Shown: in pieces, positions 17,599 through 51,630 of the stretch
Position numbering within the stretch: position 1 is the first letter of the stretch
Layout: each line of letters begins with the position of its first letter
Origin: a virus
Lineage: Duplodnaviria > Heunggongvirae > Uroviricota > Caudoviricetes
Reading direction: 5' to 3' (one strand)
IMG/VR virus record: IMGVR_UViG_3300029705_000031
DNA length: 64,000 bases
Notes under the pieces: generated by a model
Database searches by the model: none
The model's input: only the letters and a program-made list of their open reading frames with translations
What the model was told of the DNA's origin: nothing
Translations under genes and position numbers: made by a program

Positions 17599-18150
17599 AT
17601 GGATTTAACAAAAGTTAGTAAATACTTAAGTCTAATTTTACGTCATAAACCTGAAGTAATTGGAATTACTTTAGATAAACATGGCTGGGCAAATACAAAA
17701 GAATTGATTGAAGGAATCAATAAACAACAAGATTTCAATATGAAAATGTTAGAAGAAATTGTTAGAAATGATAATAAACAACGTTATTCTTTCAATGAAG
17801 ATAAGACATTGATTCGTGCTAATCAAGGTCATTCCATTAATGTAGATGTAGAATTGGAAGAAAAAGAACCGCCTGAATTTCTTTATCATGGGACAGGTAT
17901 GAAATATGTAGGTTCTATTAATAGAATTGGATTACTTCCAAAAACTAGACTTTATGTTCATCTTTCAGAAACTTATGAGATTGCTATAGAAGTAGGTAAA
18001 CGACATGGTGAACCTAAAGTTTATCAAATTAAAGCTAAAAATATGTATAAAGATGGATATAAATTCTATCTATCAAAAAATGGTGTTTGGTTAACAAAAG
18101 AAGTTTCTCCGAAGTATTTTAATCATAATATAGATGCTACATTAAACTAA
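17599..18150 (+). CDS. kptA: RNA 2'-phosphotransferase Tpt1/KptA family
   Basis: hallmark Tpt1 motifs: SKYLSLILRHKPE (Arg-His), IRANQGHS (Arg), YHGT, RLYVHLS; 183 aa matches family size. Confidence 0.85.
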   Translation: MDLTKVSKYLSLILRHKPEVIGITLDKHGWANTKELIEGINKQQDFNMKMLEEIVRNDNKQRYSFNEDKTLIRANQGHSINVDVELEEKEPPEFLYHGTGMKYVGSINRIGLLPKTRLYVHLSETYEIAIEVGKRHGEPKVYQIKAKNMYKDGYKFYLSKNGVWLTKEVSPKYFNHNIDATLN

Positions 18151-31366: not shown

Positions 31367-31561
31367 ATGAATAACTTTAAGGTTAAGGAAATGCAGAATA
31401 TTCTTAGAAATAATGGTTATGCAAAGAAAAGACATCGTGGATCTCATGAAATCTGGTATAATGATGATAAAAATGATACTGTAGTTATTACTAATCGTAA
31501 GAAAGGTGTTAATTACTTTACAGCAACTAAAATGATGAAAGAACATTGTATTGTAAGATAA
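31367..31561 (+). CDS. hicA: HicA-like mRNA interferase toxin homologue
   Basis: 64 aa; LRNNGYAKKRHRGSHEIW...VVITNRKKGVNYFTATKMMKE matches HicA GFxxxRxxGSHxxW...V consensus. Confidence 0.55.
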   Translation: MNNFKVKEMQNILRNNGYAKKRHRGSHEIWYNDDKNDTVVITNRKKGVNYFTATKMMKEHCIVR

Positions 31562-32336: not shown

Positions 32337-33866
32337 ATGGCGACTAAAAAGAATCTAACATATAACGAAGATAGTATTAAAGTCCAAGAATATCCTGATA
32401 ATGTAAGATCTAATCCTACAGTCTATATCAGTAGTCTTGGTAAAGAAGGTAATACGCATCTACTAAGAGAAGTAATTGATAACTCTATTGATGAATTCCT
32501 AAATGGTTTTGGTAAAACAATTACAATTGAAATTTCCAATAAAAAAGGTGTATTTAGAGTAATTGATGAAGGTCGTGGTGTTCCTCCTAAATCTATTGAA
32601 AGAGCATTTACTACATTACATGCTTCAGGTAAATTCGATAAAGATAGTTATAGCACATCAGGTGGTCAGCATGGTCTTGGTAGTACATGTGTTAATGCAC
32701 TTAGTAAGTATTTCCTTGTCATTACACATGAAGGTGGTCATGAATACTCTCAAAGATTTGAATATGGTAAGAAAGTAACTGAACTAAAAGATTTAGGAAA
32801 GTCTGATAAGGTAGGTACTATTGTAGAGTTTTGTCCTGATGAATCTGTAATGGATACATTTGAGATTGACATTGAATCAGTCAAAGATGAATGTAAGATG
32901 AAGTCTTTTATCAATAAAGGACTTACTATCATTATTAAGGACATGGATGAAAAGAAACAGGCTAAGTATTATCATAAAGATGGTATTGAGGAATACGTAC
33001 AGTTAAATGCTAAGAAAGCTCTATTTAATCCTATTACATTCTCTACATCAACTACTGTTAACAAGGCTAATAAAGAATTGAATGTAGAAATCGATTGTTC
33101 CTTTACTTATGATAACTCTACTGATCCTATCAATATTAAATCCTTCTGTAATTCCATTTATACTAGTGATGGCGGTACTCATGAAACTGGTTTTAAAACA
33201 GCTCTTACTAGTTTGATTAAAAAGTATATTGCTGATAATAACCTACTAACTAAAAAAGATGCAAATCTAGACATTACTGGTGATTCAGTTCAGGAAGGTG
33301 TAGTAGCAGTAGTATCTATCAAACATCCTCATCCGATGTATGATCAGCAGTCTAAGAAAAAGCTTAACTCTACAGAAGTTTCTGGTGCAGTAATGAAAGC
33401 AGTTAATGCAGAATTTAGTAAGTGGATTGAAACCCATGCTAAAGAAATGAAAGTACTTTGTACTAAAGTAATTGAATCTGCAAAGGCTAACAGTGCTGCT
33501 AAGAGAGCTAAAGAACTAGCTAATAAGAAATCTGAAAATGGAATTACTGCTGTTTCTGATCTATCAAAATTAGCTAACTGTATTTCTAAGAAACCTGAAG
33601 AATGTGAACTGTTTGTAGTTGAGGGTAATTCTGCAAGTTCAAGTGCTAGAAATGGTAGAGATAAGCAAACTCAGGCTGTTTATGCTCTAAGAGGTAAGAT
33701 TCTCAATACTAACAATCTAGCTGAAACTAAGATTTTTGAAAATAAGGAACTATCAGATTTGATTTATATCTTAACTGGTAAGAAAACTGCAATTGGTAAG
33801 AATTTCAATGTTGAAGACATGAAGTATCATAAACTGGTAGCCTTGACTGATGCTGACGATGACGGT
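32337..33866 (+). CDS. type IIA DNA topoisomerase ATPase subunit (GyrB/T4 gp39-like), exon 1 (GHKL ATPase + transducer + first half of Toprim, ends ...LTDADDDG)
   Basis: GHKL motifs EVIDNSIDE, IDEGRGVP, GGQHGLGSTCVNALS; Toprim VEGNSASSSARNGRDKQTQAVYALRGKILN; ORF stops 3 codons after DADDDG where GyrB continues SHIRTLLLTFFYR. Confidence 0.85.
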
Positions 33867-35157
33867 AAATGACACATTAAGTCTGCATCAGTGAGAAATT
33901 TTCTAACAATACATTAGTATTAATGTTAGGAGGTTTCATTCAAATGAAAAATGAAAAAGAAACTAAAGAAAGATATGCTTCTGGTATTGAAAATTGTAAA
34001 AAACAAGCTCAAAATCTTAAACAAAAAGCATCTGAAAAATTTTTAAGTAAAGTTTACGAACAAGTTGGTGATGATTATACTTTTCTGGAAACTTATGTAA
34101 CGAGTAAAACTAAACTCTGGGTAATACATAATGTTTGTGGACATAAGTATAGAGTAACTCCAAATGAGTTTACTTCTCATAAAAGACGTTGTCCAAACTG
34201 TGCAAATAAAAAAAGAGTACTTAATACTGGAATAAAACCTCATACATTAGAATCTATTATTGAAAGTGTAAAAGAATTATCTAATGACGAATATGAGGTA
34301 GTTAGTAATGAGTATGAAAATAATAAAGAAAAAATTTGGGTTAGACATAAAACATGTAGTTATTCATACCTTGTTCGTTATAATGACTTTCAGCAAGGAT
34401 ATAGATGTCCTTTATGTGCTGACATGAATAAAAGTCAGAATAATTCTAAACCAATACAGGATATTAAAAGTGTTCTAGATTTTAATAAAATTGAGTATGA
34501 ATCAGAAGTGTCATTTGAAGAATGTGTAGACAAACGTTTTCTTCCATTTGATATATTGGTTTATACTGATAAAGTCAATGATGAATACTTTTTAATTGAG
34601 TATGATGGACAACAACATTCTGATCCTAATGCACAATTTGGAGGAACTAAAGAAGAAAGACTTATTAGATTTGAGCTAACTCAAAAACATGACACTATAA
34701 AAAATGCTTTTTGTGAAGAAAACAGTATAAAACTTTATAGAATTTCTTATAAAGAAGATTTGATGAGCAAACTAAGAAGTATATTGGAAGAAAATAATCT
34801 AATTTGACTTGCAGTGAATGCCGTCTAAAAACCTAGTTAACTGCGGGAAACTATCAATAAACACTATTTACTAAACTAAGATAGTAATATACTTAGTGGC
34901 AATGGGTAACTCCAAAGATATAGTAAAAAGAATAGTGTTTGATACAATCGACGCAACGAAGTATCCTACATTTAGTAAAAGATAGGATATGAGTTCAACG
35001 ACTATCGAAACCAACTAACTTAATGTTAGTAATAAGGTAAGTTGAAATACTTACACGAAGGGAGTAGAGTAGGGAAATGTAAATTACAAAGTACCGAAAA
35101 GCTAGGCTATACTAATTTAGTATAGAAAATATAGTCTAAATTATGCAAAGTAATTTG
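33867..35157 (+). mobile_element. group I self-splicing intron (ORF in P1 loop) interrupting the GyrB-like gene inside the Toprim DxDxD motif
   Basis: IGS gccgtc (34818..34823) complementary to exon end gacggu with U.G at the splice site; P-like element aactgcgggaaa (34840..34851); R element gttcaacgactatcgaaacc (34993..35012); S element aaaatatagtc (35127..35137) giving P7 gacta/tagtc; omega-G 35157; exon 2 restores ...HIASLILGFVYRH. Confidence 0.8.
33923..34807 (+). CDS. intron-encoded putative homing endonuclease: three CxxH/CxxC zinc-finger-like repeats + C-terminal Vsr/DUF559-like (EDxHD-type PD-(D/E)xK) nuclease domain
   Basis: repeats CGHKYRVTPNEFTSHKRRCPNCA, CSYSYLVRYNDFQQGYRCPLCA; C-terminal FDILVYTD...LIEYDGQQHSD...RLIRF pattern typical of Vsr-like nucleases; AGGAGG RBS. 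Confidence 0.5.
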   Translation: MLGGFIQMKNEKETKERYASGIENCKKQAQNLKQKASEKFLSKVYEQVGDDYTFLETYVTSKTKLWVIHNVCGHKYRVTPNEFTSHKRRCPNCANKKRVLNTGIKPHTLESIIESVKELSNDEYEVVSNEYENNKEKIWVRHKTCSYSYLVRYNDFQQGYRCPLCADMNKSQNNSKPIQDIKSVLDFNKIEYESEVSFEECVDKRFLPFDILVYTDKVNDEYFLIEYDGQQHSDPNAQFGGTKEERLIRFELTQKHDTIKNAFCEENSIKLYRISYKEDLMSKLRSILEENNLI

Positions 35158-35982
35158 CTTCACATTGCAAGCCTTATCTTAGGATTTGTATATAGACATG
35201 CTAAACCCATTTTGGAAAAAGGTTACATGTATATTGCAATGCCTCCTCTTTATTCTATCATTGAAAGAAATAAGAAACGTTATTTCTTAAATCAAGAGGA
35301 ATATGATGCATATATTGAGGAAAAGATTTTTGAAAACTATGTATTTAGTTGTAATGAGATAGGTTTAAATAAGACTAAAGCTAAAACCATTCTTAAGAAT
35401 TTTGAAACTTACAAAAACAAAGTAAGTGAACTATCTACTAGTACAGGTATCAATATGTATTTAATTGATGATGTATGTGATTATTTACGTACTAATGAAA
35501 ATGCAACAAGTAAGGATATTGTGAATTTATTAAAACAGATTGGTGATTTTGAATTCTTTAAGAATGATGAAGGAAATTCTGAGATTAATGGTCTTTATGA
35601 TAATAGCTTTGTAAATGCAGTAATTAAGGATTTAGTAAAGTCTGCTAAAAAAGCTAAGAAGATTCTAGAAGATCTTAGTATTCCTGAAGAAGTATTCATC
35701 AATGATTATCATCTATCAATTAAGAACTATCAAGACATGTATAACAAGGTTACACCTAAGTCCAGAAGTCGATTCAAAGGCTTGGGAGAAATGGATGCTA
35801 ATGAACTTTGGGAAACTACTCTTGATCCTTCAGTTAGAAACATTATGCAAGTTGTACTATCAGATGAAGAAAAGACAGATGATACTATGGATACACTACT
35901 AAATTCTAATAGTAAGTATGCAGACAAACGTAAAGTATTCTTAATGAAAAATCAGCAAAAGATTAAGGAATTAGAAATCTAA
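35158..35982 (+). CDS. type IIA topoisomerase ATPase subunit (GyrB-like), exon 2 (rest of Toprim and C-terminal domain)
   Basis: HIASLILGFVYRHAKPILEKGYMYIAMPPLY aligns with GyrB HIRTLLLTFFYRxMxxLIExGxVYIAQPPLY; exact 3' splice site +/- a few nt. Confidence 0.8.
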   Translation, partial: LHIASLILGFVYRHAKPILEKGYMYIAMPPLYSIIERNKKRYFLNQEEYDAYIEEKIFENYVFSCNEIGLNKTKAKTILKNFETYKNKVSELSTSTGINMYLIDDVCDYLRTNENATSKDIVNLLKQIGDFEFFKNDEGNSEINGLYDNSFVNAVIKDLVKSAKKAKKILEDLSIPEEVFINDYHLSIKNYQDMYNKVTPKSRSRFKGLGEMDANELWETTLDPSVRNIMQVVLSDEEKTDDTMDTLLNSNSKYADKRKVFLMKNQQKIKELEI

Positions 35983-37016: not shown

Positions 37017-37056
37017 AAAGAGGATGTTTTATTCATTAAAACATCCTCTTTATTTT
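37017..37056 (+). terminator. rho-independent terminator
   Basis: aaagaggatgtttt / aaaacatcctcttt. Confidence 0.65.
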
Positions 37057-37076: not shown

Positions 37077-37334
37077 ATGGAAAGCTTAAAGAATGTAATA
37101 GAAAATGAGCATATTTTTATAGTAGAAGTTGAAGAAGTTTTACAAAAGTTAGTTGCTATTAAAGCAGATAGTAAAGAAGAAGCATTAAAAAGAGCTAAAG
37201 AAAAATACAAAAATTGTGAACTTATCTTAAATGAAGAGGATTTTAAAGAAACTAGCTTTAAGATTTATGAATACAATGATCCTAGAGAAATCATAGAACT
37301 AGTAATCACAGCTTTAGCTAATAGAACTTGTTAG
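37077..37334 (+). CDS. hypothetical protein (85 aa)
   Basis: ORF with GGAGAG RBS. Confidence 0.4.
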   Translation: MESLKNVIENEHIFIVEVEEVLQKLVAIKADSKEEALKRAKEKYKNCELILNEEDFKETSFKIYEYNDPREIIELVITALANRTC

Positions 37335-38377
37335 AAAGGACTAATGATGAAATGACTATTGAAGAAATCAAAAATATGGTTAATGGTGAATCATACGATT
37401 TTCTAAGAACTAATCCACATCTTAAGGATAGAATCATTTTTCTTACATTAGGTGGTAGCTATGCCTATGGTACAAATAATGAAAATTCAGATGTAGATGT
37501 TCGTGGTTGTGCTCTTAATAGTGTTAATGATATCCTCGGTATGTCAAATTTTGAACAGGTAGTAAATACAACAACAGATACGACAATCTATAGTTTTAAT
37601 AAATTGATTAAACTCTTAATCAGCTGCAATCCTAACACCATTGAATTACTTGGTTGTAAACCAGAACACTATTTTTACATTACAGATATTGGTAAAGAAC
37701 TAATAGACAATAGAAAAATTTTTCTTTCTAAAAAAGCAGTTGAGGATTCTTTTGGTGGATATGCAACTCAGCAGCTTCGTCGTTTAGAAAATGCAATAGC
37801 TAGAGATAAACTATCACAGGAAGATAATGAAAGACACATTAGAAATTCCATGCAAAGATCTTTAAATCACTTTATTGATAAATATGGAATTTCTGATGGT
37901 AATGGTGTTGAACTCTTTATAGATAAAAGTAATCGTGATGATTTAGATTGTGAAATTTTCTGTAAGATTTACCTTGACAAAATTCCAGCAAGAGATTTTA
38001 CTGTTATGTTAAACTCTCTATCAAATGTAATTAGTAGTTATGGAAAACTAAATCATAGAAATCATAAGAAAGATGATGCACATCTTAATAAACATGCAAT
38101 GCATCTAATTAGACTGTATCTAATGGCTATTGACATTCTAGAAAAAGAAGAGATCAATACTTATAGAGAAAATGATATAGAATTTCTATTAAGTATTCGT
38201 AATGGAAGATATCAAAATGAAGATGGTACTTACCATAAAGATTTCTTTGATATTGTATCTGATTATGAAAAACGTTTAGTATATGCTAAAGAAAATTCTA
38301 GTCTTCCTATGGAGCCAAATATGGAACTTATTGAAGAATTTACAATAGATGTAAATAGGAGGTCATTAGATGTATAA
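37328..38377 (+). CDS. Pol-beta-superfamily nucleotidyltransferase (349 aa), translationally coupled to CCA-adding enzyme
   Basis: hG[GS]x9-13Dh[DE]h signature LGGSYAYGTNNENSDVDVRG near N-terminus; 8-nt overlap with next gene. Confidence 0.5.
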   Translation: MLERTNDEMTIEEIKNMVNGESYDFLRTNPHLKDRIIFLTLGGSYAYGTNNENSDVDVRGCALNSVNDILGMSNFEQVVNTTTDTTIYSFNKLIKLLISCNPNTIELLGCKPEHYFYITDIGKELIDNRKIFLSKKAVEDSFGGYATQQLRRLENAIARDKLSQEDNERHIRNSMQRSLNHFIDKYGISDGNGVELFIDKSNRDDLDCEIFCKIYLDKIPARDFTVMLNSLSNVISSYGKLNHRNHKKDDAHLNKHAMHLIRLYLMAIDILEKEEINTYRENDIEFLLSIRNGRYQNEDGTYHKDFFDIVSDYEKRLVYAKENSSLPMEPNMELIEEFTIDVNRRSLDV

Positions 38378-39713
38378 TGTCTCTTTCAATATTCCAGATA
38401 ATGTGAATGTTATCTTAGATACTTTACATGATAATGGATATGAAGCATATATAGTCGGTGGATGTGTTAGAGATAGTCTGTTAGGATTACAACCAAAAGA
38501 TTGGGATATTTGTACTTCAGCACTTCCACCACAAATACTAGAAGTTTTTAATGATAAGCGTATAATTGAAACAGGTTTAAAACATGGAACAGTTACTATA
38601 GTTCTAGATGACGAACAGTATGAGATTACAACATATCGTACTGATGGAAACTATTCTGATAATCGACATCCAGATTCAGTAACATTTGTTAGTAACCTTA
38701 AAGAAGATCTTGCAAGAAGAGATTTTACTATAAACGCTATGGCTTATAACAAACAAGATGGTTTGATTGACTATTTTAATGGTTATAAGGATTTAAAGAA
38801 TGGTATAATTTCTTGTGTTGGAGATGCTAATGAACGTTTTAATGAAGATGCGTTACGTATTATGAGAGCTTTACGTTTTTCTTCTAGATATGAAATTCCA
38901 ATTGCAGAATCCACACAAGAAGCTATTCATAAAAATAAGGATTTACTTAAAAATATTGCCATTGAACGCATTAATAGCGAATTATGTAAATTGTTACTTG
39001 GTTATGGTGGATCCTATATTTTAGCAAACTATAAAGATGTGATTACAACTATTATTCCAGAATTAAAACCTTGTATTGGATTTAATCAAAATAATCGTTA
39101 TCATGAATACGATGTTTATGATCATATCAGACATGCAGTATACAATTATGGAGGTTCGGATTTAGTAGTAATTATATCACTCTTACTTCATGATATTGGC
39201 AAACCTCATTGTTATACTGAAGACTGTAACGGAGGACATTTTTATGGTCATGGAGTAGTAAGTCATGATATAGCAGAGAAAGTATTAGACAATTTAAGAT
39301 TTGATAATAAAACAAAACATGATGTTCTTGAATTAGTATTATACCATGATTCAACTATTGAACCAACACCAAAAACAGTACGTAGATGGTTAAATAAAAT
39401 TGGTGAAAAACAATTTTTAAGACTTCTTGATATTCGTGAAGCAGATATGTTAGCACACTCCAAAGATACACAGAAGTCTAGATTAGAAAGAAATGATAAA
39501 CTTAGAAAAATTTTAGCTGAAATAATCCAATCTAATCAATGTTTTACTATAAAGGACTTAGCAATTAATGGTAAAGACATTATTGCTATGGGTGTACCTG
39601 AAGGTAAACGTATAGGTGAAATACTAAATACAGTCCTTAATGAAGTTATTAATGAAACTATTGTAAATGAAAGAAAATTTTTATTAGATTACGTATATTA
39701 TAATCTAGTATAG
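38370..39713 (+). CDS. cca: tRNA nucleotidyltransferase (CCA-adding enzyme/poly(A) polymerase family) with HD domain
   Basis: IVGGCVRDSLLGLQPKDWDICT, RRDFTINAMAY head-domain motifs and LLLHDIGKP HD motif. Confidence 0.8.
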   Translation: MYNVSFNIPDNVNVILDTLHDNGYEAYIVGGCVRDSLLGLQPKDWDICTSALPPQILEVFNDKRIIETGLKHGTVTIVLDDEQYEITTYRTDGNYSDNRHPDSVTFVSNLKEDLARRDFTINAMAYNKQDGLIDYFNGYKDLKNGIISCVGDANERFNEDALRIMRALRFSSRYEIPIAESTQEAIHKNKDLLKNIAIERINSELCKLLLGYGGSYILANYKDVITTIIPELKPCIGFNQNNRYHEYDVYDHIRHAVYNYGGSDLVVIISLLLHDIGKPHCYTEDCNGGHFYGHGVVSHDIAEKVLDNLRFDNKTKHDVLELVLYHDSTIEPTPKTVRRWLNKIGEKQFLRLLDIREADMLAHSKDTQKSRLERNDKLRKILAEIIQSNQCFTIKDLAINGKDIIAMGVPEGKRIGEILNTVLNEVINETIVNERKFLLDYVYYNLV

Positions 39714-39727
39714 AAGGAGAACACATA

Positions 39728-42700
39728 ATGGCACAGAATGTAATTCAAAAGGATATTGTTGATATTCAAAAAGACAATATGCTTCAGTATATGATGTCTC
39801 TAATGTATGATAGAGCGATTCCTGATATTAGAGATGGATTAAAACCAGTACAGAAATTTATCCTTTGGAGTTGTTACAGTTCAGGTTTCTTTCCAAATAA
39901 ACCCCATGTAAAGTGTGCTAAGATTGCTGGTGATGTTATTGCTAACTTCCATCCACATTCACTAGATGCAGCTTATGAAGCATTGTGTAGACTTGCTCAG
40001 ACTCATTCTATGAATATTCCATTAATTGATTTTCATGGTGCATGTGGTTCTATTGATGGATCAGGCGCAGCAGCTCATAGATATTGTGTGACTGGTGATA
40101 CCTTAATTAGTCTACCAAATGGTAAATTAAAAAGAATTGATGAACTAATTGAAAATTCTAATGATGATTCAACTATGGATGTAGATTTTGAAGTATTAGA
40201 TTTTAAAAATAATCCAGTACATGTTTCTAAATTCTTTAATTCTGGAAAACATGATATAATCAAGATTAAAACCAGTTCTGGTTGTACTATTAGAGGTAGT
40301 TATAATCATCCTATCTTGTGTTTATATAAAAATCCTACTGATGGTCTACCAGAATTCAGATGGACAACTTTAGATAAAATTGAAACTGGATGTTATGCTG
40401 TTATAGCATCTAAATTCAATAATTCTTTTAATGAAACTATAAGTGAAGAAGAAAAGCTTAAAGCAATTTTCTTTGGTGGAATGGTTTCTGAAGGAGGTTT
40501 ATCTAAAAATCAGAGATACTATAGAGTAAGTTTCTCCAATCAAGATAATGAATACTATAATCTAGTGGAATCTGGATATAAAGTATATCTTGAAGAGAAT
40601 AATCTAAGTAATTTGAATATTCGTATTAATCCAAATGCTCGTGGTGGAGTTAAAGAATTTTGTACTGAAGACAAAAATCTTCATAATTTAGTTAAAGAAC
40701 AAATTGGTGAAGATGCTCATAATAAACAGATTCCTCCCTATGTTCTAAACTCTAATTTAGAAATTCAAAGATGGTTTTTAAAGGCACTTTTTGAAGGAGA
40801 TGGAGGAGTAACATGTCGTTTAGATAAAAGAAGAAAAGATAATGTTACTGGACATGTATTTTATTCTACTTCTTCAACAAAACTTTTGAATGAATTAAAA
40901 ATTCTATTAATGAATTTTGGTATTAGAACTAAAGTTACTAAAGACAGATCTAATTTTAAACTTACAATTTATTCTTTAACTGACATGAAAATTTTTAAAG
41001 AAAAAATAGGATTTTTAAGTGATAGAAAAAATAAAGTATTGAATGAATTAGTAGAAAATAAAGAAATACAAATTACTAAGTCTTATGGTGTTTCTTCTTC
41101 AGATAAAATTCCATATCTTGCCGAATTCATTAGAAATAATAAACTTAGAAATACACATTATTTAAAGTCTCATAGCCTAAATTGTAAACAAGATATAGAT
41201 AAACATAATGATGTAATTAAAGATTCTTTGAGTTATGAAGAATATTTTAAGCTTATGAGAAAACTTGAAGTTTTAGATTTATACCATTATGAAGAAATTA
41301 TTGAAGTTGAAAGACTACCAGAAGAAGTAGTATATTCAATTAAAGTAGATTCTAATGATCATAGTTTTATTAGTAATGGTTTTATTAGTCATAATACTGA
41401 GGCAAAACTTAGTAAATATGGATTAGATATTCTTAGTGAAATCGATAAGGATGCTGTTGATTTTGAAAAGAACTATGATGTAACTAAAGATCAACCAACT
41501 GTTTTACCTGCAGTAATTCCTAATATCCTATTGAATTCTTCAATGGGTATTGCAGGTGGTTATGCTTCTTCAATTCCTCCACATAACATCAAGGATGTAT
41601 GTAATACTGTATGTGAACTAATTGATAATCCTAATATGTCAGTTCAAGATGTAGCTAAGAAACTAGTTCCTGACTTTCCTACAGGTGGTATCTTATGTTC
41701 TAAGAAGGAAATTGAAAAAGCTTACATTACTGGTCAGGGTTCAGTAAAACTAAGAGGTAGAGCAACTATCAATAGAAATAAGAATAACACATCAGAAATT
41801 GTTATTACTGAAATTCCATTTATGACTACAATTGGTCCTCGTATGAGTGGCACATCTACTAATACTGAGGGTGGTTTGATTAATTCCATTGTAGCTAAGA
41901 TTAAAGATGGTACAATTGATGGAATTAAGGATATTCACGATATTTCTGATAAGAATGGTCTATGTATTAAAGTTTTTATCAAGAAAGATTATGACCCTGA
42001 TGTTATTCTAAATCAGTTATACAAGTTCACTCAGTTAGAATCTACTTTTAAGATCATTCTAGTTTGTAAGAATGGTAATTTCTTTAAGGTTTATAACATC
42101 AAGGAAATTCTAACTGAATGGATTGAATTCCGTGTATCTACTATTAGACGTATCATTACACATGATATCAAGAAAGCTAAGTATCGTGAACATATTCTAG
42201 AAGGTCTATTAAAAGCATTAACTGATATCGATACTGTTATTAGTATCATTAAGAAAGCTAATGGAAGAGCTGATGCTAAAGTAAAGTTAGTTAGGAAATA
42301 TGGATTTACTGATTTACAGGTTGAAGCTATTCTTGACATGAAACTTTCTCAGTTAAACTCTCTAGATGGAAAGAAGCTAGAAGAAGAAAAACTAAGTAAG
42401 CAAAAAGAAATTCTAGAACTAAAAGAGAATTGGAAAGAATCCAATATCTATGAAAGAATTAAGAAAGAACAGAAAGAATTTGCTAAAAAATATGGTAGTG
42501 AAAGAAAGACTACTGTAGAAGAGATTGATACTGATATTACTACTGAAGACATTATTGCTGATGAAGATACTTTGATTGTCATTACTCAGGGTAATTACAT
42601 TAAGCGTATTTCAAATGAGTTTAGAACTCAGAAACGTGGTACTCAGGGTATTTCTATTGGTGATAACTCTATCACAGAAATGTTCTCTGCTTCTACTAAG

Positions 42701-43543
42701 GATCATCTACTATGTTTTACTAATACTGCCAGAGTCTATGATTTAAAAGCTTATGACATTAAAGAATCTAAGGATCTTAAAGCTAAGGGTTTAAGAATTG
42801 AAAATTATCTAAATCTAAAAGAAAATGAAACAGTTACTAACATTCTATGTATCAATAATACACAGATGAATGATAATGAATCCTTCCTAGTTTTCGCTAC
42901 TAAGAATGGTATGATTAAGAAAACTAAGTTAGAAGAATTCAATAACATTCGTTCTACTGGTATTATTGCTTTGATGTTAAAGTCTGGTGATGAACTAGTT
43001 TCTGTAAAGTATATTGATACTAGTAAACCTATGCAAGATATCTTGATTTCTACTAAAAATGCTCAGACAGTTAGATATGATCATGAAGAAATCAAAGAAT
43101 TAGGTAGAAATACCTATGGTGTAATTGGTATTAATCTAGAAAATGATGACCGTATTACAGATATGTGTATCATTGAAGATGACGAACAACTAATCTTCTT
43201 TGCTACTAAAAATGGTTTAGGTAAAACTATTCGTATTACTGATAATGTAGAAAAAGTTGATCCCAATACTAAAGAAAAAGTAATCATCAATGATGGTTTT
43301 CCTAGACTAAAACGCTCATCCAACATTAAAGGCAGACTATGCATGAAACTAAAAGAAAATGACGAATTAGTTTCAATGGTAGCTATCAATAATGTAAATG
43401 ACGAACTAATGATTGTTACTGATAGCAAACTATTAGTAGTCAATACTGAAGAATTCAAAGAACCTTTAAAGAGACCTACTTATGGTAAGAAATTAGTTAG
43501 TTTGACTAATGAAGACTATGTAAGAAAGGTGATTCTAAAGTGA
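39728..43543 (+). CDS. type IIA topoisomerase DNA breakage-reunion subunit (GyrA/ParC-like; precursor containing an intein)
   Basis: N-terminal GyrA blocks HPHSLDAAYEALCRLAQ and AAAHRY(active-site Tyr)...TEAKLSKYG split by intein; C-terminal beta-pinwheel-like repeats. Confidence 0.85.
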   Translation: MAQNVIQKDIVDIQKDNMLQYMMSLMYDRAIPDIRDGLKPVQKFILWSCYSSGFFPNKPHVKCAKIAGDVIANFHPHSLDAAYEALCRLAQTHSMNIPLIDFHGACGSIDGSGAAAHRYCVTGDTLISLPNGKLKRIDELIENSNDDSTMDVDFEVLDFKNNPVHVSKFFNSGKHDIIKIKTSSGCTIRGSYNHPILCLYKNPTDGLPEFRWTTLDKIETGCYAVIASKFNNSFNETISEEEKLKAIFFGGMVSEGGLSKNQRYYRVSFSNQDNEYYNLVESGYKVYLEENNLSNLNIRINPNARGGVKEFCTEDKNLHNLVKEQIGEDAHNKQIPPYVLNSNLEIQRWFLKALFEGDGGVTCRLDKRRKDNVTGHVFYSTSSTKLLNELKILLMNFGIRTKVTKDRSNFKLTIYSLTDMKIFKEKIGFLSDRKNKVLNELVENKEIQITKSYGVSSSDKIPYLAEFIRNNKLRNTHYLKSHSLNCKQDIDKHNDVIKDSLSYEEYFKLMRKLEVLDLYHYEEIIEVERLPEEVVYSIKVDSNDHSFISNGFISHNTEAKLSKYGLDILSEIDKDAVDFEKNYDVTKDQPTVLPAVIPNILLNSSMGIAGGYASSIPPHNIKDVCNTVCELIDNPNMSVQDVAKKLVPDFPTGGILCSKKEIEKAYITGQGSVKLRGRATINRNKNNTSEIVITEIPFMTTIGPRMSGTSTNTEGGLINSIVAKIKDGTIDGIKDIHDISDKNGLCIKVFIKKDYDPDVILNQLYKFTQLESTFKIILVCKNGNFFKVYNIKEILTEWIEFRVSTIRRIITHDIKKAKYREHILEGLLKALTDIDTVISIIKKANGRADAKVKLVRKYGFTDLQVEAILDMKLSQLNSLDGKKLEEEKLSKQKEILELKENWKESNIYERIKKEQKEFAKKYGSERKTTVEEIDTDITTEDIIADEDTLIVITQGNYIKRISNEFRTQKRGTQGISIGDNSITEMFSASTKDHLLCFTNTARVYDLKAYDIKESKDLKAKGLRIENYLNLKENETVTNILCINNTQMNDNESFLVFATKNGMIKKTKLEEFNNIRSTGIIALMLKSGDELVSVKYIDTSKPMQDILISTKNAQTVRYDHEEIKELGRNTYGVIGINLENDDRITDMCIIEDDEQLIFFATKNGLGKTIRITDNVEKVDPNTKEKVIINDGFPRLKRSSNIKGRLCMKLKENDELVSMVAINNVNDELMIVTDSKLLVVNTEEFKEPLKRPTYGKKLVSLTNEDYVRKVILK
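40085..41395 (+). mobile_element. intein (437 aa) with LAGLIDADG homing-endonuclease domain, inserted immediately after the catalytic tyrosine codon of the GyrA-like gene
   Basis: block A CVTGDTLISL, block B GSYNHPIL (TxxH), two LAGLIDADG motifs AIFFGGMVSEGG and FLKALFEGDGGV, block G VYSIKVD...ISHN followed by +1 Thr (TEAKL); removal restores AAAHRY-TEAKLSKYG. Confidence 0.9.
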
Positions 43544-43912: not shown

Positions 43913-43959
43913 AAATTCGACTATTTCAAGGTTATATCTTGAAATAGTCGAATTTTTTA
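43913..43959 (+). terminator. rho-independent terminator
   Basis: aaattcgactatttcaag / cttgaaatagtcgaattt + T-run. Confidence 0.7.
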
Positions 43960-46217: not shown

Positions 46218-47199
46218 TGGTATTCCCGTTCCTAGACGTGATGAAAATAGCAAGAAAATGATCAACGATTACACTACACATGTTAAAATGCAGCAGATTT
46301 TGGATAATGATACTAGAGGTATCAACACAATCCTCTTTATTGACGAGCTAAATAGATGTGAAGCAGCAGTGAATCAGGAACTCATGCAGTTGATTCTTGA
46401 CCGTAGAATCAATGAAACGATTCTTCCTGATTCTTGTATTATTGTTGCAGCAGGTAACCCTGAGTATGACGATGATAACGACTATCAGGTTCAGGTTATG
46501 AACGACGCCATGAAGAATCGGTTTGTTAAGTATACACTTGAAGCTGATGTAAAGGACTGGCTTAAGTGGGCATCTAACACAAAGGATGATAACAAAACTG
46601 GTACAGAAGCAATTGATTCTGACGTAATTGAGTTTATTGCAGAAATGCCTAATCTACTTCACGATCCTCATAGTAAAGAAGACATCAAGCCCACTCCTAG
46701 AGGTTGGGAACTTCTTTCTAAGGTAATGAGACAGATTAAGAATTACTATCCTGAAGATTTTGAAAGTATGTTGTTTGAAGCAGCAAAGGGTGTAGTTGGT
46801 CAGACTCCTGCAACCCAGCTAATTGGTTTCCTGAGAGATAAGAAGAATCCTATTACTTCTACTAAGGATATTTTCAAGTCTTCTGATAAGGAATTTAACA
46901 ATAACGTACTTAACAAGATTAAGGGTGATACATCCACTAGACAGTTCGTTATCATTGATCGTTGCATTCGTTACATTAGCGAAAACATTAAGGAATTCAA
47001 TGATAAGAAGACTGGTGAAAATAGCTGTAAGAGATTCATTGAAGTATGTAAGGTACTTCCCAAGGACATCATGGTTGGCGTTCTAAAGAACATTGGTGTT
47101 AATCATAAGAATATTCATGATACTTTTACTAAGTATGATGACTATATGGATCTATTCTTTGATACCAATAAGAAGACTATGACTGCGGCAAACATCTAA
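46218..47199 (+). CDS. MoxR-type AAA+ ATPase, exon 2 (Walker B, sensor and AAA lid)
   Basis: ILFIDELNRCEAAVNQELMQLILDRR...IIVAAGNPEYDDDNDYQV...AMKNRF = classic AAA_5/MoxR Walker B-sensor blocks; in-frame extension upstream of first ATG back to 46198. Confidence 0.75.
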
Positions 47200-47212
47200 G
47201 CCATACTAATAG

Positions 47213-47270
47213 AGTTTAAGAGTTAGAGAAAAATAAAAAATTCTCTAACTCTTAAACTTTTTTCTTTTTT
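47213..47270 (+). terminator. rho-independent terminator (long-loop hairpin)
   Basis: agtttaagagttagag / ctctaactcttaaact + T-runs. Confidence 0.6.
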
Positions 47271-47318
47271 AATGAGTAATCAAAAAATCTTATAGAGAAA
47301 GGAGATGTACTATAAGTT

Positions 47319-48488
47319 TTGACTGATAAAGAATTGGAATTTGTAAAAAAGTTTCTAGATTTTAAAGAAGCTACTGAAAACAGTTACTACTATGATCGTT
47401 ATATAACACCAAGTGATGTTATGAAGTTTTTACAACCAGATGCAAGAAGAAACTATAAAGATGCTTGTAACATACTTTCTTATGAAGATAGAATAGATTT
47501 AGCAAAAATCTATCTAGAAAGAATAGTAAGTATGACATTTAGTAACAATTTTGGTTACTATAAAAATAGTCATAATAGTAATAAAGGTTACTATGAAACG
47601 ATGTTATCCAATAGTGGAATTGACTGTTATGTTGATGTAGCTAAAACAAATGAAGAAGGTTTTCCATTAGAGTTCAACAAGAAAAATGAGAACTTTTTCT
47701 ATATCTTCTTAGATGGTCTCTATAAGTATTGGGATAAGCAGTTAGAATACTATAAAAACAATCAACAAGAAGCTGTAGAGATTATGTTTGAATCTCAATG
47801 TAATGGTACTTGGTTTTACTATAACCATTTCAACTATAACTTCCTAAAAGTATATCTAGAATATCTGAAATCTAGAGGATTTAAGATTAACATCTTTGAG
47901 CTTTTCAATAAGAAACTCAAAAGAGTTATAAAAAGTATGGATAAAGGTTTAGCACATTATACTAAATCTTATCTATTTGAAAGTTTAGCTATAATCTTTG
48001 ATTTCTATAATGCTATTCTAGATATCTATGGAGAAGATAATGAAAAAGTAATCAATAAGCTACAGAACAATCTAATCACTATTTTCAAAGATGAAATAGA
48101 AACTGAGAAATTTGGTTTCATGAATACTTTCTTATACACAAAGAGGTGGACTAACAATAGTAAGAATAGAAGTTCTGAATCAACTAGTGATGTAGTTCAT
48201 TTCTGGGAGTATGTTTACAATAATGAACTAAATCCTACTTTAAAACGTATCTTCTTGAATGCAATAATTCATACTTGGAATAAGTCACCTATTCCAAAAG
48301 TAAGAAACTCAATGCAGTTACTAGTGGATTTAGCAACTTATAAATATGATGGAAGATCAGGATTTCCATACCATAATCAAAGATTGTTCTATAATGACAT
48401 AATTGCAAATGCAAACATGCTAAAGAAATCTGTTAAATCTATACTATTTTCTAAAGCAATTCTAGAAGAAGGAGGTTTATTTCTATAA
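47319..48488 (+). CDS. hypothetical protein (389 aa), TTG start, between MoxR ATPase and VWA genes
   Basis: ORF with AAAGGAG RBS; stop overlaps next start (TAATG). Confidence 0.5.
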   Translation: MTDKELEFVKKFLDFKEATENSYYYDRYITPSDVMKFLQPDARRNYKDACNILSYEDRIDLAKIYLERIVSMTFSNNFGYYKNSHNSNKGYYETMLSNSGIDCYVDVAKTNEEGFPLEFNKKNENFFYIFLDGLYKYWDKQLEYYKNNQQEAVEIMFESQCNGTWFYYNHFNYNFLKVYLEYLKSRGFKINIFELFNKKLKRVIKSMDKGLAHYTKSYLFESLAIIFDFYNAILDIYGEDNEKVINKLQNNLITIFKDEIETEKFGFMNTFLYTKRWTNNSKNRSSESTSDVVHFWEYVYNNELNPTLKRIFLNAIIHTWNKSPIPKVRNSMQLLVDLATYKYDGRSGFPYHNQRLFYNDIIANANMLKKSVKSILFSKAILEEGGLFL

Positions 48489-49984
48489 TGGCAGCTAAAG
48501 TTAGTACTAAGAATACTAGTTTAGAAGACATGAATGTAGAAGAACTTAAGAAAAGATGCTTAGAATGTGTTAACAACAAGGATCTTAATACTGCAACAAG
48601 ATACTTTAAAGAGTACATTGAATTGATCATCTTCAATCTATTGATTTCAGATCACTTCTTTGGTACTTTCATTATCCATATGCAAAGAGAAATTCGTTAT
48701 GATTTCTATGCACCTGCAGGTGTAACTATCAAAAAAGGTTCTCCATTATTGGTAATAAATCCTGCTCTACTACTAAGATATACTCATAAAGAAGTTAAAG
48801 CTATTCTAAAACATGAGGTTTATCATCTACTTCATTTCCATCTTCTAAGAAGTAAAGAGAATAACAATCGTTTTGATAGCTATATTGAGAATATCGTTAT
48901 GGACGTTGCTATCAACCAGTTCATTCCAGAAATTCCTGATGAATGTGTTACGTTTGACAATTTCTGTAAACAGTTTAAACTAGATCCTTACAGAGTATCT
49001 CGTAAAGAATCTTTTGAGTATTACTTAGAACTAGTAAAGAATAGTGATGTATACAAAAAAGATTCTGAACAGTATAAGCAAATGATGAAGGATATTCAGG
49101 ATATTCTTGATCAGCTTAATGAAAGTATGGGTCAGAATGGTAATGGTTCTGGTAGTGGCTCTGGATCTGGTGATGGTAAAAATGGTAAAGCTTCTGGAAA
49201 TGGTTCTGGAAATGGTGGAAAATCCATTCAGGAAATGTTAGATGAAATTCTAGATAAGAAATATCCTATTGATCATTCTATCTGGAAAGAATCTGATAGT
49301 TCCGATGTTCAGAACATCAAGGAGATCGTTAAGCATATGGTAAATGAAGCAATCAAGAATTGTGGTAATGTACCTGGCGATCTACAAGAGCTAATCAATA
49401 AGATTAATGAACCTACTATCATTAAGTGGCAGGATGAACTAAAGAGACTTGTTGGTTCTGTTAAGTGTCCTTATAAACTTACTCCTCTAAGAAGACCTAG
49501 AAGACAGCCTGATAGAATGGATCTTAAGGGTAAAATGTCTGATAGAAAAGTTAAAATCGCAGTTGCTATTGATACTTCTGGTTCTATGGGTGAAAGAGAA
49601 CTTCAGTTTGTATTCTCTGAAATCTTTAAGATTCTAGAATTGGTTAAGTTTGAAATGACAATCATTGAATGTGATTATAACGTACAGAGAGTTTATAAGG
49701 CTAAGAACCTGCAAGAAGTTGACATGAATGTCAAGGGACGTGGAGGTACAGCATTTACACCTGTCTTCAAATATCTTAAGGAAGAAATGCGTCAACAAGA
49801 TAAACCTGACTTACTGGTTTATTTCACTGACGGATGGGGCGAGTCTTGTCTTGACGAAAAGTATCATATTAGTAGTAGTACCAAACTAATGTGGGTATTA
49901 ACAGGACGTAAGAAAGATTTATCATGTTCTGGACATGGTGCTTGGACTAATAAGATCAAAGAACTTAAGATGAACGAAAGATAA
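48488..49984 (+). CDS. VWA-domain protein with N-terminal putative metallopeptidase-like (HExxH) domain; typical partner of MoxR ATPases (DUF2201-like architecture)
   Basis: HEVYHLLH motif; MIDAS motif KIAVAIDTSGSMG; Gly/Ser-rich linker; gene order MoxR-x-VWA. Confidence 0.6.
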   Translation: MAAKVSTKNTSLEDMNVEELKKRCLECVNNKDLNTATRYFKEYIELIIFNLLISDHFFGTFIIHMQREIRYDFYAPAGVTIKKGSPLLVINPALLLRYTHKEVKAILKHEVYHLLHFHLLRSKENNNRFDSYIENIVMDVAINQFIPEIPDECVTFDNFCKQFKLDPYRVSRKESFEYYLELVKNSDVYKKDSEQYKQMMKDIQDILDQLNESMGQNGNGSGSGSGSGDGKNGKASGNGSGNGGKSIQEMLDEILDKKYPIDHSIWKESDSSDVQNIKEIVKHMVNEAIKNCGNVPGDLQELINKINEPTIIKWQDELKRLVGSVKCPYKLTPLRRPRRQPDRMDLKGKMSDRKVKIAVAIDTSGSMGERELQFVFSEIFKILELVKFEMTIIECDYNVQRVYKAKNLQEVDMNVKGRGGTAFTPVFKYLKEEMRQQDKPDLLVYFTDGWGESCLDEKYHISSSTKLMWVLTGRKKDLSCSGHGAWTNKIKELKMNER

Positions 49985-49997
49985 GTGTTAAATTCAT

Positions 49998-50036
49998 ACT
50001 AGAGACTATAATACAACTTATAGTCTCTAGTATTTT
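49998..50036 (+). terminator. rho-independent terminator
   Basis: actagagactata / tatagtctctagt + T-run. Confidence 0.65.
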
Positions 50037-50070
50037 ACATAAATCAAAAAATAAAAAGGAGACTTAAAAA

Positions 50071-51630
50071 ATGGCAATTATTATCCCTATCATTATTGGC
50101 GTAGTACTATTAGGATTAGTCATTGGTTTCATGTGTATGATTTACAAGGTAGCTGATATTGACAAGGCATTGATTATTACTGGTGGCAAAGAGCCTAAGA
50201 TTAAGGTATCTGGTGGTAGTTTTGTAATTCCTATTTTTAGAAGAGCACAGTATTTTGATCTTTGTATGCTTACTGTTAAGGCCGATAGAGATGAAATTCG
50301 TACTGTAACTTCTGTACCTATTGTTACCGACTGGACTGCTCAGATTCGTCCTGATACCTCTGATGAAGCAAATCTAAAGAAAGCAATTATGTCTTTTAAA
50401 GAACGTGGTCAGGAAGGTATTATTAATGATGTTAAACTAACTCTTACTGGCGCTGTTCGTGATATTGTTGCATCTATGACTCCTGAAGCTGTTCTTAAAG
50501 ATAAGGCTGAATTTGCTCAGAAGGTTCGTGATACTGTTGAAGATGAAATGAGAAACATGGGTATGGAACTAGTTTCTCTAAACATTCAAGATATTTCTGA
50601 TAATAATGGTTACTATGATAACATTGCAGCTCTAGATATGGAAGATAAGCGTCTATCCGCAGAAACTAAGAAGGCTCAGATTAATCAGGAAGTTCGTAAG
50701 AAGAAGGCAGAATCTGAACAAGCTGCTGCTCATTCTGAACTTGCTGCAAATCTAGCTATTGCTGAAAAGAAACGTGATAATGATCTTAAGAGAGCTGAAT
50801 TTAAGGCTGAAACTGATACTGCTAATGCAAATGCTGAAATTGCTGGTAGACTTCAGACAACTAAGAGAGAACAGGAAGTTGCAGAACAGGAAGGTAGAAT
50901 TCAGGTAATCCGTCAGGAACAGGCTAACTTTGCTGCTCAGAAGGAAAAGGAAGTTATCATCACTAAGGCACAGGCTGAAAAAGAAAAGAATCAGATTGCA
51001 GCTGAAGCAGTAGCTAACATCAAGAAGATTGATGCTGAAGCAAAGGTTATGGTTGCTGAAAGAGAAGCTAATGCTATTAAGATCAATGCTGATGCTAATG
51101 CAGAAAAGGTTAAGAAGGAAGGTCAGGCAACAGCTGATGTTACTAAGCTAAAGGGTATTGCTGAAGCTGAAGTAGCAAAGGAAAAGGGTCTAGCAGAAGT
51201 AGAAGTCATTAAGGAAAAGGGTCTAGCAGAAGCTGAAGCTGAGAAGGCTAAACTACTAGCTAAGGCAGAAGGTGAAAAGGCTCTAGCAGATGCTCGTGCT
51301 TCTAATGAAAAGGTTAACTTCGAAATCGAAAAGCTTAAGATTGAAGCTGAAGCTAGAGTAACTATTGCTACTAAGACTGCTGAAATTATGGCTGAGATTG
51401 GTAAGAATGCTGAATTCGTCAACATCAATGGTTCTTCTCAGGGTACTCAGAGTGGTAATGTACTAATCGATACTCTTAAAGGTATTCCTGAACTTATGAA
51501 GGTTCTTAATGTTGAGAATGAAGCTCTTAATGGTAAGGGTATTAATGATGAAGTTAAAGGTATTGTCGAGAGTGTAACTGGTCCTGTAAAGGGATTACTT
51601 GTTGACAATTCTAACAAGTCTGATACATAA
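50071..51630 (+). CDS. flotillin/SPFH (band 7) family membrane protein with N-terminal TM helix and long Ala/Glu/Lys-rich coiled-coil (EA repeats)
   Basis: N-terminal IIIPIIIGVVLLGLVIGFMCMI; SPFH-like core; repeated AEAEVAKEKGLAEVEV... characteristic of YqiK/FloT flotillins. Confidence 0.65.
   Translation: MAIIIPIIIGVVLLGLVIGFMCMIYKVADIDKALIITGGKEPKIKVSGGSFVIPIFRRAQYFDLCMLTVKADRDEIRTVTSVPIVTDWTAQIRPDTSDEANLKKAIMSFKERGQEGIINDVKLTLTGAVRDIVASMTPEAVLKDKAEFAQKVRDTVEDEMRNMGMELVSLNIQDISDNNGYYDNIAALDMEDKRLSAETKKAQINQEVRKKKAESEQAAAHSELAANLAIAEKKRDNDLKRAEFKAETDTANANAEIAGRLQTTKREQEVAEQEGRIQVIRQEQANFAAQKEKEVIITKAQAEKEKNQIAAEAVANIKKIDAEAKVMVAEREANAIKINADANAEKVKKEGQATADVTKLKGIAEAEVAKEKGLAEVEVIKEKGLAEAEAEKAKLLAKAEGEKALADARASNEKVNFEIEKLKIEAEARVTIATKTAEIMAEIGKNAEFVNINGSSQGTQSGNVLIDTLKGIPELMKVLNVENEALNGKGINDEVKGIVESVTGPVKGLLVDNSNKSDT

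Follow-up and report, generated by a model that had tools for sequence, protein, structure and literature searches.

Overlapping phage genes for a long-form RlaP nucleotidyltransferase and a CCA-adding enzyme: a candidate module for rebuilding tRNA 3' ends

Why should a phage carry, in overlapping genes, two nucleotidyltransferases that are both predicted to extend RNA 3' ends? The question arises from a stretch of 64,000 nucleotides of the IMG/VR virus record IMGVR_UViG_3300029705_000031 (Caudoviricetes), referred to here as the window, in which the end of one open reading frame, ORF1, overlaps the start of a second, ORF2, encoding a CCA-adding enzyme. An original prediction, made from the sequence alone, had taken the two genes for a translationally coupled pair acting on tRNA 3' ends, and had left ORF1 to be a second tailing activity, a MenT-like tRNA modifier or a CD-NTase-like signalling enzyme. 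Our analysis assigns ORF1, at the level of family, to RlaP and leads us to propose that the two genes form a translationally coupled module that would rebuild tRNA 3' ends during infection. We regard this as slightly better than an even bet (roughly 0.55); in it we infer the substrate, the order of the steps and a role in counter-defence.

The two enzymes and their junction

Both frames lie on the plus strand and were found as first described, ORF1 open from 37328 to 38377 and ORF2 occupying 38370..39713 (447 aa, beginning at ATG 38370-38372). They share 8 nt, ATGTATAA (38370-38377), which end in the ORF1 stop codon TAA (38375-38377). Within the 3' end of ORF1 lies an AGGAGG (38357-38362), spaced 7 nt from the ORF2 ATG. 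An internal ribosome-binding site followed by a short start/stop overlap (38357..38377) is an arrangement classically associated with translational coupling, and we therefore propose that translation of ORF2 is coupled to that of ORF1. The frame of ORF1 does extend over 349 aa when counted from TTG 37328, as had been predicted, but its start is more likely the in-frame ATG at 37352, 11 nt downstream of an AAAGGA (37335-37340), yielding a protein of 341 aa (37352..38377). This start is preferred because the gene calls on four independent contigs with the identical protein use it, and because the alignment of homologues starts at residue 1 of the 341-aa form.

The profile matches and conserved residues identify ORF1 as a long form of RlaP with intact catalytic residues. 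It matches the Pfam RlaP family PF10127 with 61.9 bits (cutoff 23; E 1e-16), although only over model positions 18-141 of 249, and PHROG 388 'nucleotidyltransferase' across its full length (E 9e-54), bearing out its earlier assignment to the Pol-beta nucleotidyltransferases; all of its relatives carry precomputed PF10127. The signature already noted, GSYAYGTNNENSDVDVRG, is present, and the catalytic motif reads G35-S36 ... D47-x-D49 ... D76 (codons 37490-37492, 37496-37498 and 37577-37579 for the three aspartates), with a conserved KHxxHxxR at K247-R254. Among 52 homologues of 33-58% identity, G35, D47, D76, N93 and K247 are invariant while S36, D49, R51, H248, H251 and R254 are conserved in at least 90%, which argues that the Pol-beta catalytic triad is intact. 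The protein is longer than canonical RlaP (341 aa against about 250-260 aa) and 23% identical to it over about 106 aligned residues. An AlphaFold2 model (predicted local distance difference test, pLDDT, 83.6) shows a nucleotidyltransferase domain and a confident C-terminal helical region, with residues ~130-240 forming a less confident helical and beta-hairpin insertion. The crystal structure of PfRlaP has an N-terminal nucleotidyltransferase domain and a C-terminal helical domain, whose final helix packs onto the nucleotidyltransferase domain. The family is large, comprising 5,430 clusters (50% identity) at E <= 0.001 and 410 at E <= 1e-30. An unrelated family with no link to RNA, such as the aminoglycoside nucleotidyltransferases, had been envisaged as the outcome that would speak against the prediction; the profiles place ORF1 in an RNA-repair family instead. 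No MenT/AbiEii or CD-NTase match was found in Pfam at E <= 1, and PADLOC returned only weak PDC-S09 minimal-nucleotidyltransferase matches (E ~0.007) and no CD-NTase match. After these scans the identification of ORF1 as a MenT-like, CD-NTase-like or aminoglycoside nucleotidyltransferase was rejected.

ORF2 is, by the same kinds of comparison and as had been anticipated, a class II CCA-adding enzyme with an HD domain, and its nucleotidyltransferase and HD phosphohydrolase sites are both intact. It passes the NCBIfam equivalog PRK13299 (314.6 bits, cutoff 290), while models of the PcnB type stay far under their cutoffs. The head spans residues 26-147 (PolyA_pol), the neck and RNA-binding region 178-214 (PolyA_pol_RNAbd, E 4e-8), the HD phosphohydrolase domain ~245-361 (HD, E 2e-6) and the tail 300-442 (tRNA_NucTran2_2, E 1e-13). 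Its head motifs are GGCVRD (30-35), DWD (44-46), RRD (116-118) and EDALR (159-163); across 72 distinct partner enzymes that are 26-65% identical to ORF2, GGxVRD, DxD, RRD and EDxxR are invariant or nearly so. ORF2 aligns with the Planococcus and Geobacillus CCA-adding enzymes (PDB 6ibp and 1miv; E 1e-59) with the motifs in register, and the similarity to these enzymes, which add the full CCA, suggests that its product is CCA. The HD ligands are H245, H252, H274-D275, H294, H326-D327 and D359; all are invariant in 72 of the 72 partners except D327, present in 70. This near-invariance argues that the phosphoesterase site is under selection.

The pair sits among closely spaced genes, all on the plus strand. 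A DpnD/PcfM-like small ORF (85 aa, 37077..37334; PF14207, E 4e-13) ends 17 nt before ORF1, and gyrA (39728..43543), which carries a LAGLIDADG intein, begins 14 nt after the ORF2 stop. A terminator-like hairpin with a 15-bp stem and a T run lies upstream of this group (37017..37051) and another with a 20-bp stem lies downstream (43913..43955); between 35.9 and 44.2 kb five such sites were found where shuffled sequence gives 1.5. Given the short gaps and the hairpins at both ends, the DpnD-like, RlaP, CCA-enzyme and gyrA genes look like one transcription unit. Recent horizontal acquisition of the cassette was considered and rejected, its GC content being part of an even ~29% that extends over 30-46 kb.

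Conservation of the pair in phages and in Clostridia

A protein identical to ORF1 is encoded on at least 17 metagenomic contigs, the longest of 319,626 bp, so that the window comes from a phage of jumbo size, a gut phage. Relatives of ORF1 are encoded at 559 loci in IMG/VR. A megablast of the RlaP-CCA pair against isolate phages gave no match, and relatives are detectable at the protein level only. We retrieved 99 viral or same-phage loci with RlaP identities of 56-71% and dereplicated them at 90% identity to 32 viral clusters. A CCA-enzyme gene lies within 10 kb of RlaP in 85 of the 99 loci and directly downstream in 78; counted by cluster, the figures are 24/32 and 21/32. Strong co-conservation thus replaces the possibility, raised at the outset, that the two proteins would never travel together. 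The junction is kept as well: the same 8-nt overlap recurs at 35 of 51 measured junctions, overlaps of 4-80 nt at 14 more, and an AGGAGG-like site within the RlaP 3' end is found at related junctions too. The surroundings are not kept. None of the genes that flank the pair in the window (gyrB, gyrA, the DpnD-like gene and small ORFs) recurs beside it in other loci; in particular, the DpnD/PcfM-like ORF is absent from the flanks of every related IMG/VR locus and is no conserved partner of the cassette, and the adjacency of gyrA is not conserved among relatives. The GC content of related loci ranges from 26 to 53%. Judged from these comparisons, the RlaP-CCA pair itself is the conserved unit, and because the overlap and internal ribosome-binding site are maintained while the flanks change, selection would act on the pair itself. 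An identical protein on so many contigs and an overlapping pair in dozens of related phage loci mean that the arrangement is not due to chance.

Linkage of the two genes also appears at a greater distance. In Vibrio and Vequintavirinae phages, whose RlaP is ~28% identical, a CCA-enzyme gene lies 0.5-2.3 kb upstream of RlaP: in Vibrio phage 496E54-1 a single small gene separates the CCA gene from a 350-aa RlaP, and in Vequintavirinae the distance is ~2.2-2.3 kb. We count this as an independent recurrence of the linkage. Bacillus phage Bcp1 encodes a short RlaP only, with no CCA gene nearby.

Several observations concern the history of the cassette. An HNH_3 endonuclease gene is the immediate upstream neighbour of RlaP-CCA, ~0.5 kb from RlaP, in several relatives (L003, L004, L041, L099 and L100); this gene, together with the unconserved flanks, hints that the cassette may move by homing. 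Some contigs have an intact RlaP beside a CCA gene that is cut short or broken into two ORFs (L020:11013-11516, L060:2375-3717 and L099:11016-12377), which suggests either that the partner decays now and then or that the sequences contain errors. A search of longer RlaP proteins for Rosetta-stone fusions yielded one chimera, the metagenomic protein P0126 (419 aa), in which residues 1-243 of a long RlaP are joined to the half of a CCA enzyme that holds HD and tRNA_NucTran2_2. Most likely it arose by internal deletion or through faulty assembly; otherwise it would be a natural fusion of both genes.

Long RlaP proteins are found in bacterial chromosomes too. A genome scan with a 12-sequence alignment as query gave 80 loci of 50-67% identity in Clostridia (Lachnospiraceae and Oscillospiraceae, complete chromosomes included). 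There a CCA-enzyme gene lies within 10 kb at 14 of the 80, mostly directly downstream, and at 43 of the 66 loci lacking it a canonical RlaP of 262 aa (PF10127, E 3e-88) is directly downstream instead. Long and short RlaP genes overlap at 32 of 41 junctions, most commonly by 11 nt, in flanks that are unrelated (ABC transporter, MatE), and no RNA ligase was found near these paralogue pairs. At loci L113-L180 of Lachnospiraceae and Oscillospiraceae (for example L175:10001-11859) the two genes form a stand-alone module. By neighbour-joining, partner type tracks clade, the phage type going with a CCA enzyme and the chromosomal type with a short RlaP. To judge from gene order, then, the coupled partner of the long RlaP is in most of its relatives another enzyme that adds nucleotides to 3' ends, and not a ligase.

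Genes near the cassette and elsewhere in this genome

Within 10 kb of the cassette, the 32 viral clusters most often carry a Thg1-like protein (full length ~262 aa; 16/32), followed by a 189-aa metallophosphoesterase (13/32), GP88 (12/32), Band-7 (11/32), tRNA arrays of at least three genes (9/32), a PF09414 RNA ligase (8/32), YAcAr (5/32) and Pnk-HD (4/32). In none of the 32 clusters is an RNA ligase directly beside RlaP. Thg1-like enzymes rebuild tRNA 5' ends. A Thg1-like gene (~262 aa) is near the cassette at 60 loci in all; at one it overlaps the RlaP start (L098:9223-11023) and at another it is frameshifted into two ORFs (L099:12566-13325). Among 66 phage tRNA genes examined near related cassettes, 30 have no encoded CCA. 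One locus without a CCA gene, L051 (7586-14022), has its long RlaP between Pnk(AAA_33)-HD, a DHH/DHHA1 phosphoesterase and a PARG/Macro protein, a different set for RNA-end or ADP-ribose processing; the HD domain of ORF2 is detectably related to that of the Pnk(AAA_33)-HD end-healing protein which adjoins RlaP there.

In the window itself a Tpt1/KptA RNA 2'-phosphotransferase (17599..18150, plus strand; PF01885, E 1e-45) is encoded 19.8 kb upstream of the cassette. The original prediction had tied this gene to the pair; the gene is real, but the tie is weak, since only one (L001) of ~180 related loci has Tpt1 less than 10 kb from its long RlaP, and Tpt1 was rejected as a conserved member of the cassette. 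A calcineurin-like metallophosphoesterase of 366 aa (13530..14630, plus strand; PF00149, E 3e-8) is possibly, though uncertainly, an end-healing enzyme of the RlaP-CCA system; compared with the 189-aa Metallophos encoded by relatives, it shows no homology at E 1e-6. An SPFH/Band-7 protein (519 aa, 50071..51630, plus strand; PF01145, E 3e-20) ends a row (46258..51630) that also holds a MoxR-like AAA_5 ATPase (46258..47199) and a DUF2201 VWA/metallopeptidase (48488..49984); Band-7 modules are associated in the literature with RNA-repair systems. The window and ~4 kb on each side of it hold no tRNA gene, the presence of which the prediction had proposed to check, and no RNA ligase, polynucleotide kinase, Thg1 or short RlaP. 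Searches with T4 PseT and RnlA, a phage PF09414 ligase and a Pnk-HD protein (tblastn and phmmer) matched nothing in the window apart from the HD domain of ORF2.

The window has further features. gyrB is present as two ORFs, an N-terminal one (32337..33872), which stops inside Toprim, and a C-terminal one (35143..35982), and between them lies a 294-aa treble-clef zinc-finger (DUF4379/CapR) endonuclease-like ORF (33923..34807). No Rfam RNA family was found in the window, nor a group I intron at the split gyrB, whether at the gathering threshold or at E <= 1. The intein of gyrA matches Intein_splicing over residues 127-556 and LAGLIDADG_3 over 346-428. A 64-aa ORF with a HicA-toxin Pfam match (c. 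31367..31561; L058:4016-4210) stands among replication and nucleotide-metabolism genes. The host is probably a member of the Clostridia.

Rebuilding of tRNA 3' ends, its rivals and known systems

A question remains, what would the two enzymes do together? CCA-adding enzymes put C74-C75-A76 on a tRNA whose last nucleotide is the discriminator base; the HD domains of such enzymes can clear 2',3'-cyclic or 3'-phosphates, as known for the E. coli enzyme. A tRNA that has lost the discriminator as well would need an RlaP-like step before CCA addition. The two families imply an untemplated adder of one or two nucleotides, an adder of exactly CCA and an HD phosphoesterase, all from a single coupled message. 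The simplest substrate for them jointly is a tRNA shortened beyond its CCA. In the sequence of events that we propose, a nuclease takes more than the CCA off a tRNA, for example a four-nucleotide NCCA tail; the HD site would heal the damaged end to a 3'-OH where needed, the long RlaP would refill the lost discriminator nucleotide or nucleotides, and the CCA enzyme would finish the tail, returning the tRNA to aminoacylation. The same two enzymes could also complete phage tRNAs encoded without CCA.

The chemistry assumed for ORF1 comes from its family. Two Pseudomonas RlaP enzymes add one or two nucleoside monophosphates (NMPs) onto an RNA 3'-OH and do not extend DNA; the reaction is Mn2+-dependent and untemplated, with little nucleoside triphosphate (NTP) specificity in vitro, and the preferred substrate is a cleaved-tRNA mimic, that is, damaged tRNA-like RNA. 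Pre-treatment with RlaP allows a repaired tRNA missing one nucleotide to regain aminoacylation, in total E. coli RNA the enzyme labels tRNA and rRNA-sized species, and T4 NrdC.11 belongs to the family (Carruthers, Fatma and Huang 2025 preprint). Among the roles first suggested for ORF1, a second tailing activity is thus supported by the Pseudomonas data, whereas the MenT-like and CD-NTase-like options drew no match in Pfam or PADLOC. For ORF1 the joining of one or two NMPs to an RNA 3'-OH is predicted by analogy, this chemistry being shown for the Pseudomonas enzymes only.

Damage of the kind that such a module would undo is documented. Activated Cas12a3 trims tRNA 3' ends by 2-4 nt, so that the discriminator can be lost too, and ACCA is set free; according to its authors, phage tRNAs offer no way around the tail cutting, and no mechanism of viral resistance to it is known (Nature 2026). 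A HEPN toxin strips the last four nucleotides of tRNA, and toxSAS/CapRel toxins pyrophosphorylate the tRNA CCA end. The tail damage inflicted by Cas12a3 and the HEPN toxin is the ground on which we propose a counter-defence role, and the HD hydrolase might in addition remove the lesion left by toxSAS/CapRel. A bolder version, which we hold only tentatively and would not bet on, is that the cassette is a dedicated rebuilder of NCCA tails, a viral answer to tail cutting by Cas12a3 and HEPN enzymes and possibly, via HD, to CapRel, its two products acting as a stoichiometric pair and the Clostridia pairs being its cellular counterpart.

Besides the family assignments, the conserved coupling of the pair, the intact HD site and the documented tail damage, two comparisons favour the rebuilding of tRNA tails. 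A Thg1-like gene accompanies the cassette in twice as many clusters as an RNA ligase does (16/32 against 8/32), which points to a function at tRNA ends, and the long RlaP of Clostridia is likewise coupled by overlap to a second 3'-tailing enzyme. Other points weigh against it. The long RlaP could differ from canonical RlaP in substrate and in product length, because its Pfam match covers the N-terminal half only and its identity to the canonical proteins is low. With the low NTP specificity seen in vitro for the Pseudomonas enzymes, correct restoration of the discriminator would be inefficient. The tRNA arrays near the cassette, with their many CCA-less genes, fit simple maturation equally well, the RNA ligase, Pnk-HD and Band-7 genes of some relatives fit classical break repair, and no tail-cleaving defence is known for the probable Clostridia host.

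The main rival builds on these same points. The CCA enzyme would serve ordinary maturation of CCA-less phage and host tRNAs and CCA turnover, RlaP would refill cleaved anticodon loops together with a ligase encoded elsewhere in the ~320-kb genome, and the adjacency of the two genes would reflect a shared expression class. Refilling of the anticodon loop in concert with a ligase is the original model for RlaP, and the family takes its name from its association with RNA-ligase gene neighbourhoods. This rival is a real possibility, although we think it doubtful. It draws support from the tRNA arrays (9/32 clusters; CCA missing from 30/66 tRNA genes), from the PF09414 ligase within 10 kb in 8/32 clusters and Pnk-HD in 4, from the presence of Tpt1 in this genome and, in the jumbo-phage survey, from a distribution of RlaP that mirrors that of ligases (PMC7824862). 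However, tRNA gene, ligase and kinase are all missing from the window and ~4 kb on each side; the overlap and internal ribosome-binding site are kept as the flanks change, which mere co-expression would not lead one to expect; the CCA gene is linked directly in 21/32 clusters whereas the ligase is near in 8/32 and never adjacent; and no ligase lies close to the paralogue pairs of bacteria.

That the module acts on RNA other than tRNA, by 3' tailing of phage or host transcripts or by repair of rRNA or tmRNA 3' ends, is improbable. The family of CCA enzymes does also include poly(A) polymerases of the PcnB type, the ORF2 head scores on PcnB models, and RlaP labels rRNA-sized species besides tRNA; those scores nevertheless fall far under the cutoffs while the PRK13299 equivalog is passed, the CCA-typical EDxxR and RRD are invariant, the tRNA_NucTran2_2 tail is present, and Thg1 and tRNA arrays as neighbours indicate tRNA. 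Least credible of all is an offensive or signalling role, in which ORF1 would be a MenT/AbiEii-like toxin blocking host tRNA 3' ends or a CD-NTase-like or Hailong-like oligonucleotide synthase, with the CCA enzyme as antidote or partner; the profile scans gave no match to MenT/AbiEii or CD-NTases.

Is the proposed rebuilding of tails of interest beyond this phage? The recognition that immune systems can target tRNA 3' tails is recent, and an adder of one or two nucleotides, a CCA adder and a phosphoesterase, which this widespread and self-contained phage cassette would bring together, are the enzyme set that regrowth of an NCCA tail would require. If tail rebuilding serves counter-defence, the interest of the cassette rises substantially; if ordinary maturation holds, genes mostly recorded as 'hypothetical' or 'nucleotidyltransferase' still gain a clean annotation. 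In addition, the RlaP family is partly reframed, with a long subfamily whose coupled partner is another tailing enzyme and not a ligase, and a module of two nucleotidyltransferases in gut Clostridia, of which we found no earlier description, is brought to light.

The components and the reading as RNA repair are already in the literature, and comparison with known systems shows what is shared. With canonical RlaP of RtcB/Rnl operons and with T4 NrdC.11, ORF1 shares the Pfam family, the G-S...D-x-D...D core and a helical domain after it, the predicted addition of a few NMPs onto an RNA 3'-OH and a setting of conflict and RNA repair; it differs in its ~340 aa, its match to the N-terminal half of the model, a partner that is a CCA enzyme or a second RlaP, and a window without ligase. 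E. coli Cca and ORF2 share the class II head and neck motifs, the HD domain and, as predicted for ORF2, a function in tRNA 3'-end repair, whereas ORF2 has a head nearest the Bacillus/Planococcus type and a tRNA_NucTran2_2 tail, is encoded by a phage and is coupled to an upstream RlaP. The logic of T4 Pnkp-Rnl1, directed against the anticodon nuclease PrrC, is that of a phage enzyme pair undoing damage that the host does to tRNA, as proposed here; T4 heals and seals an internal break, whereas the module described here would add nucleotides at the 3' terminus without kinase or ligase.

Closest in scope is the survey of jumbo-phage RNA repair, the available part of which ranks RlaP as the commonest nucleotide-restoring enzyme and the CCA-adding enzyme next, and further lists Thg1, KptA/Tpt1, HD and calcineurin phosphatases, and ligases (Iyer et al. 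2021, PMC7824862). All of these enzymes are found here or in relatives of the cassette. That part of the survey treats RlaP as a partner of ligases and the CCA enzyme separately, and does not describe an overlapping, mobile RlaP-CCA unit. Measured against it and against the 2025 preprint, with the founding RlaP paper (Burroughs and Aravind 2016) outside the comparison, what appears to be new is a distinct long subfamily of RlaP, the finding that most of its members are coupled to another tailing enzyme of the Pol-beta type, and the occurrence of RlaP-CCA as a mobile cassette that often stands beside Thg1.

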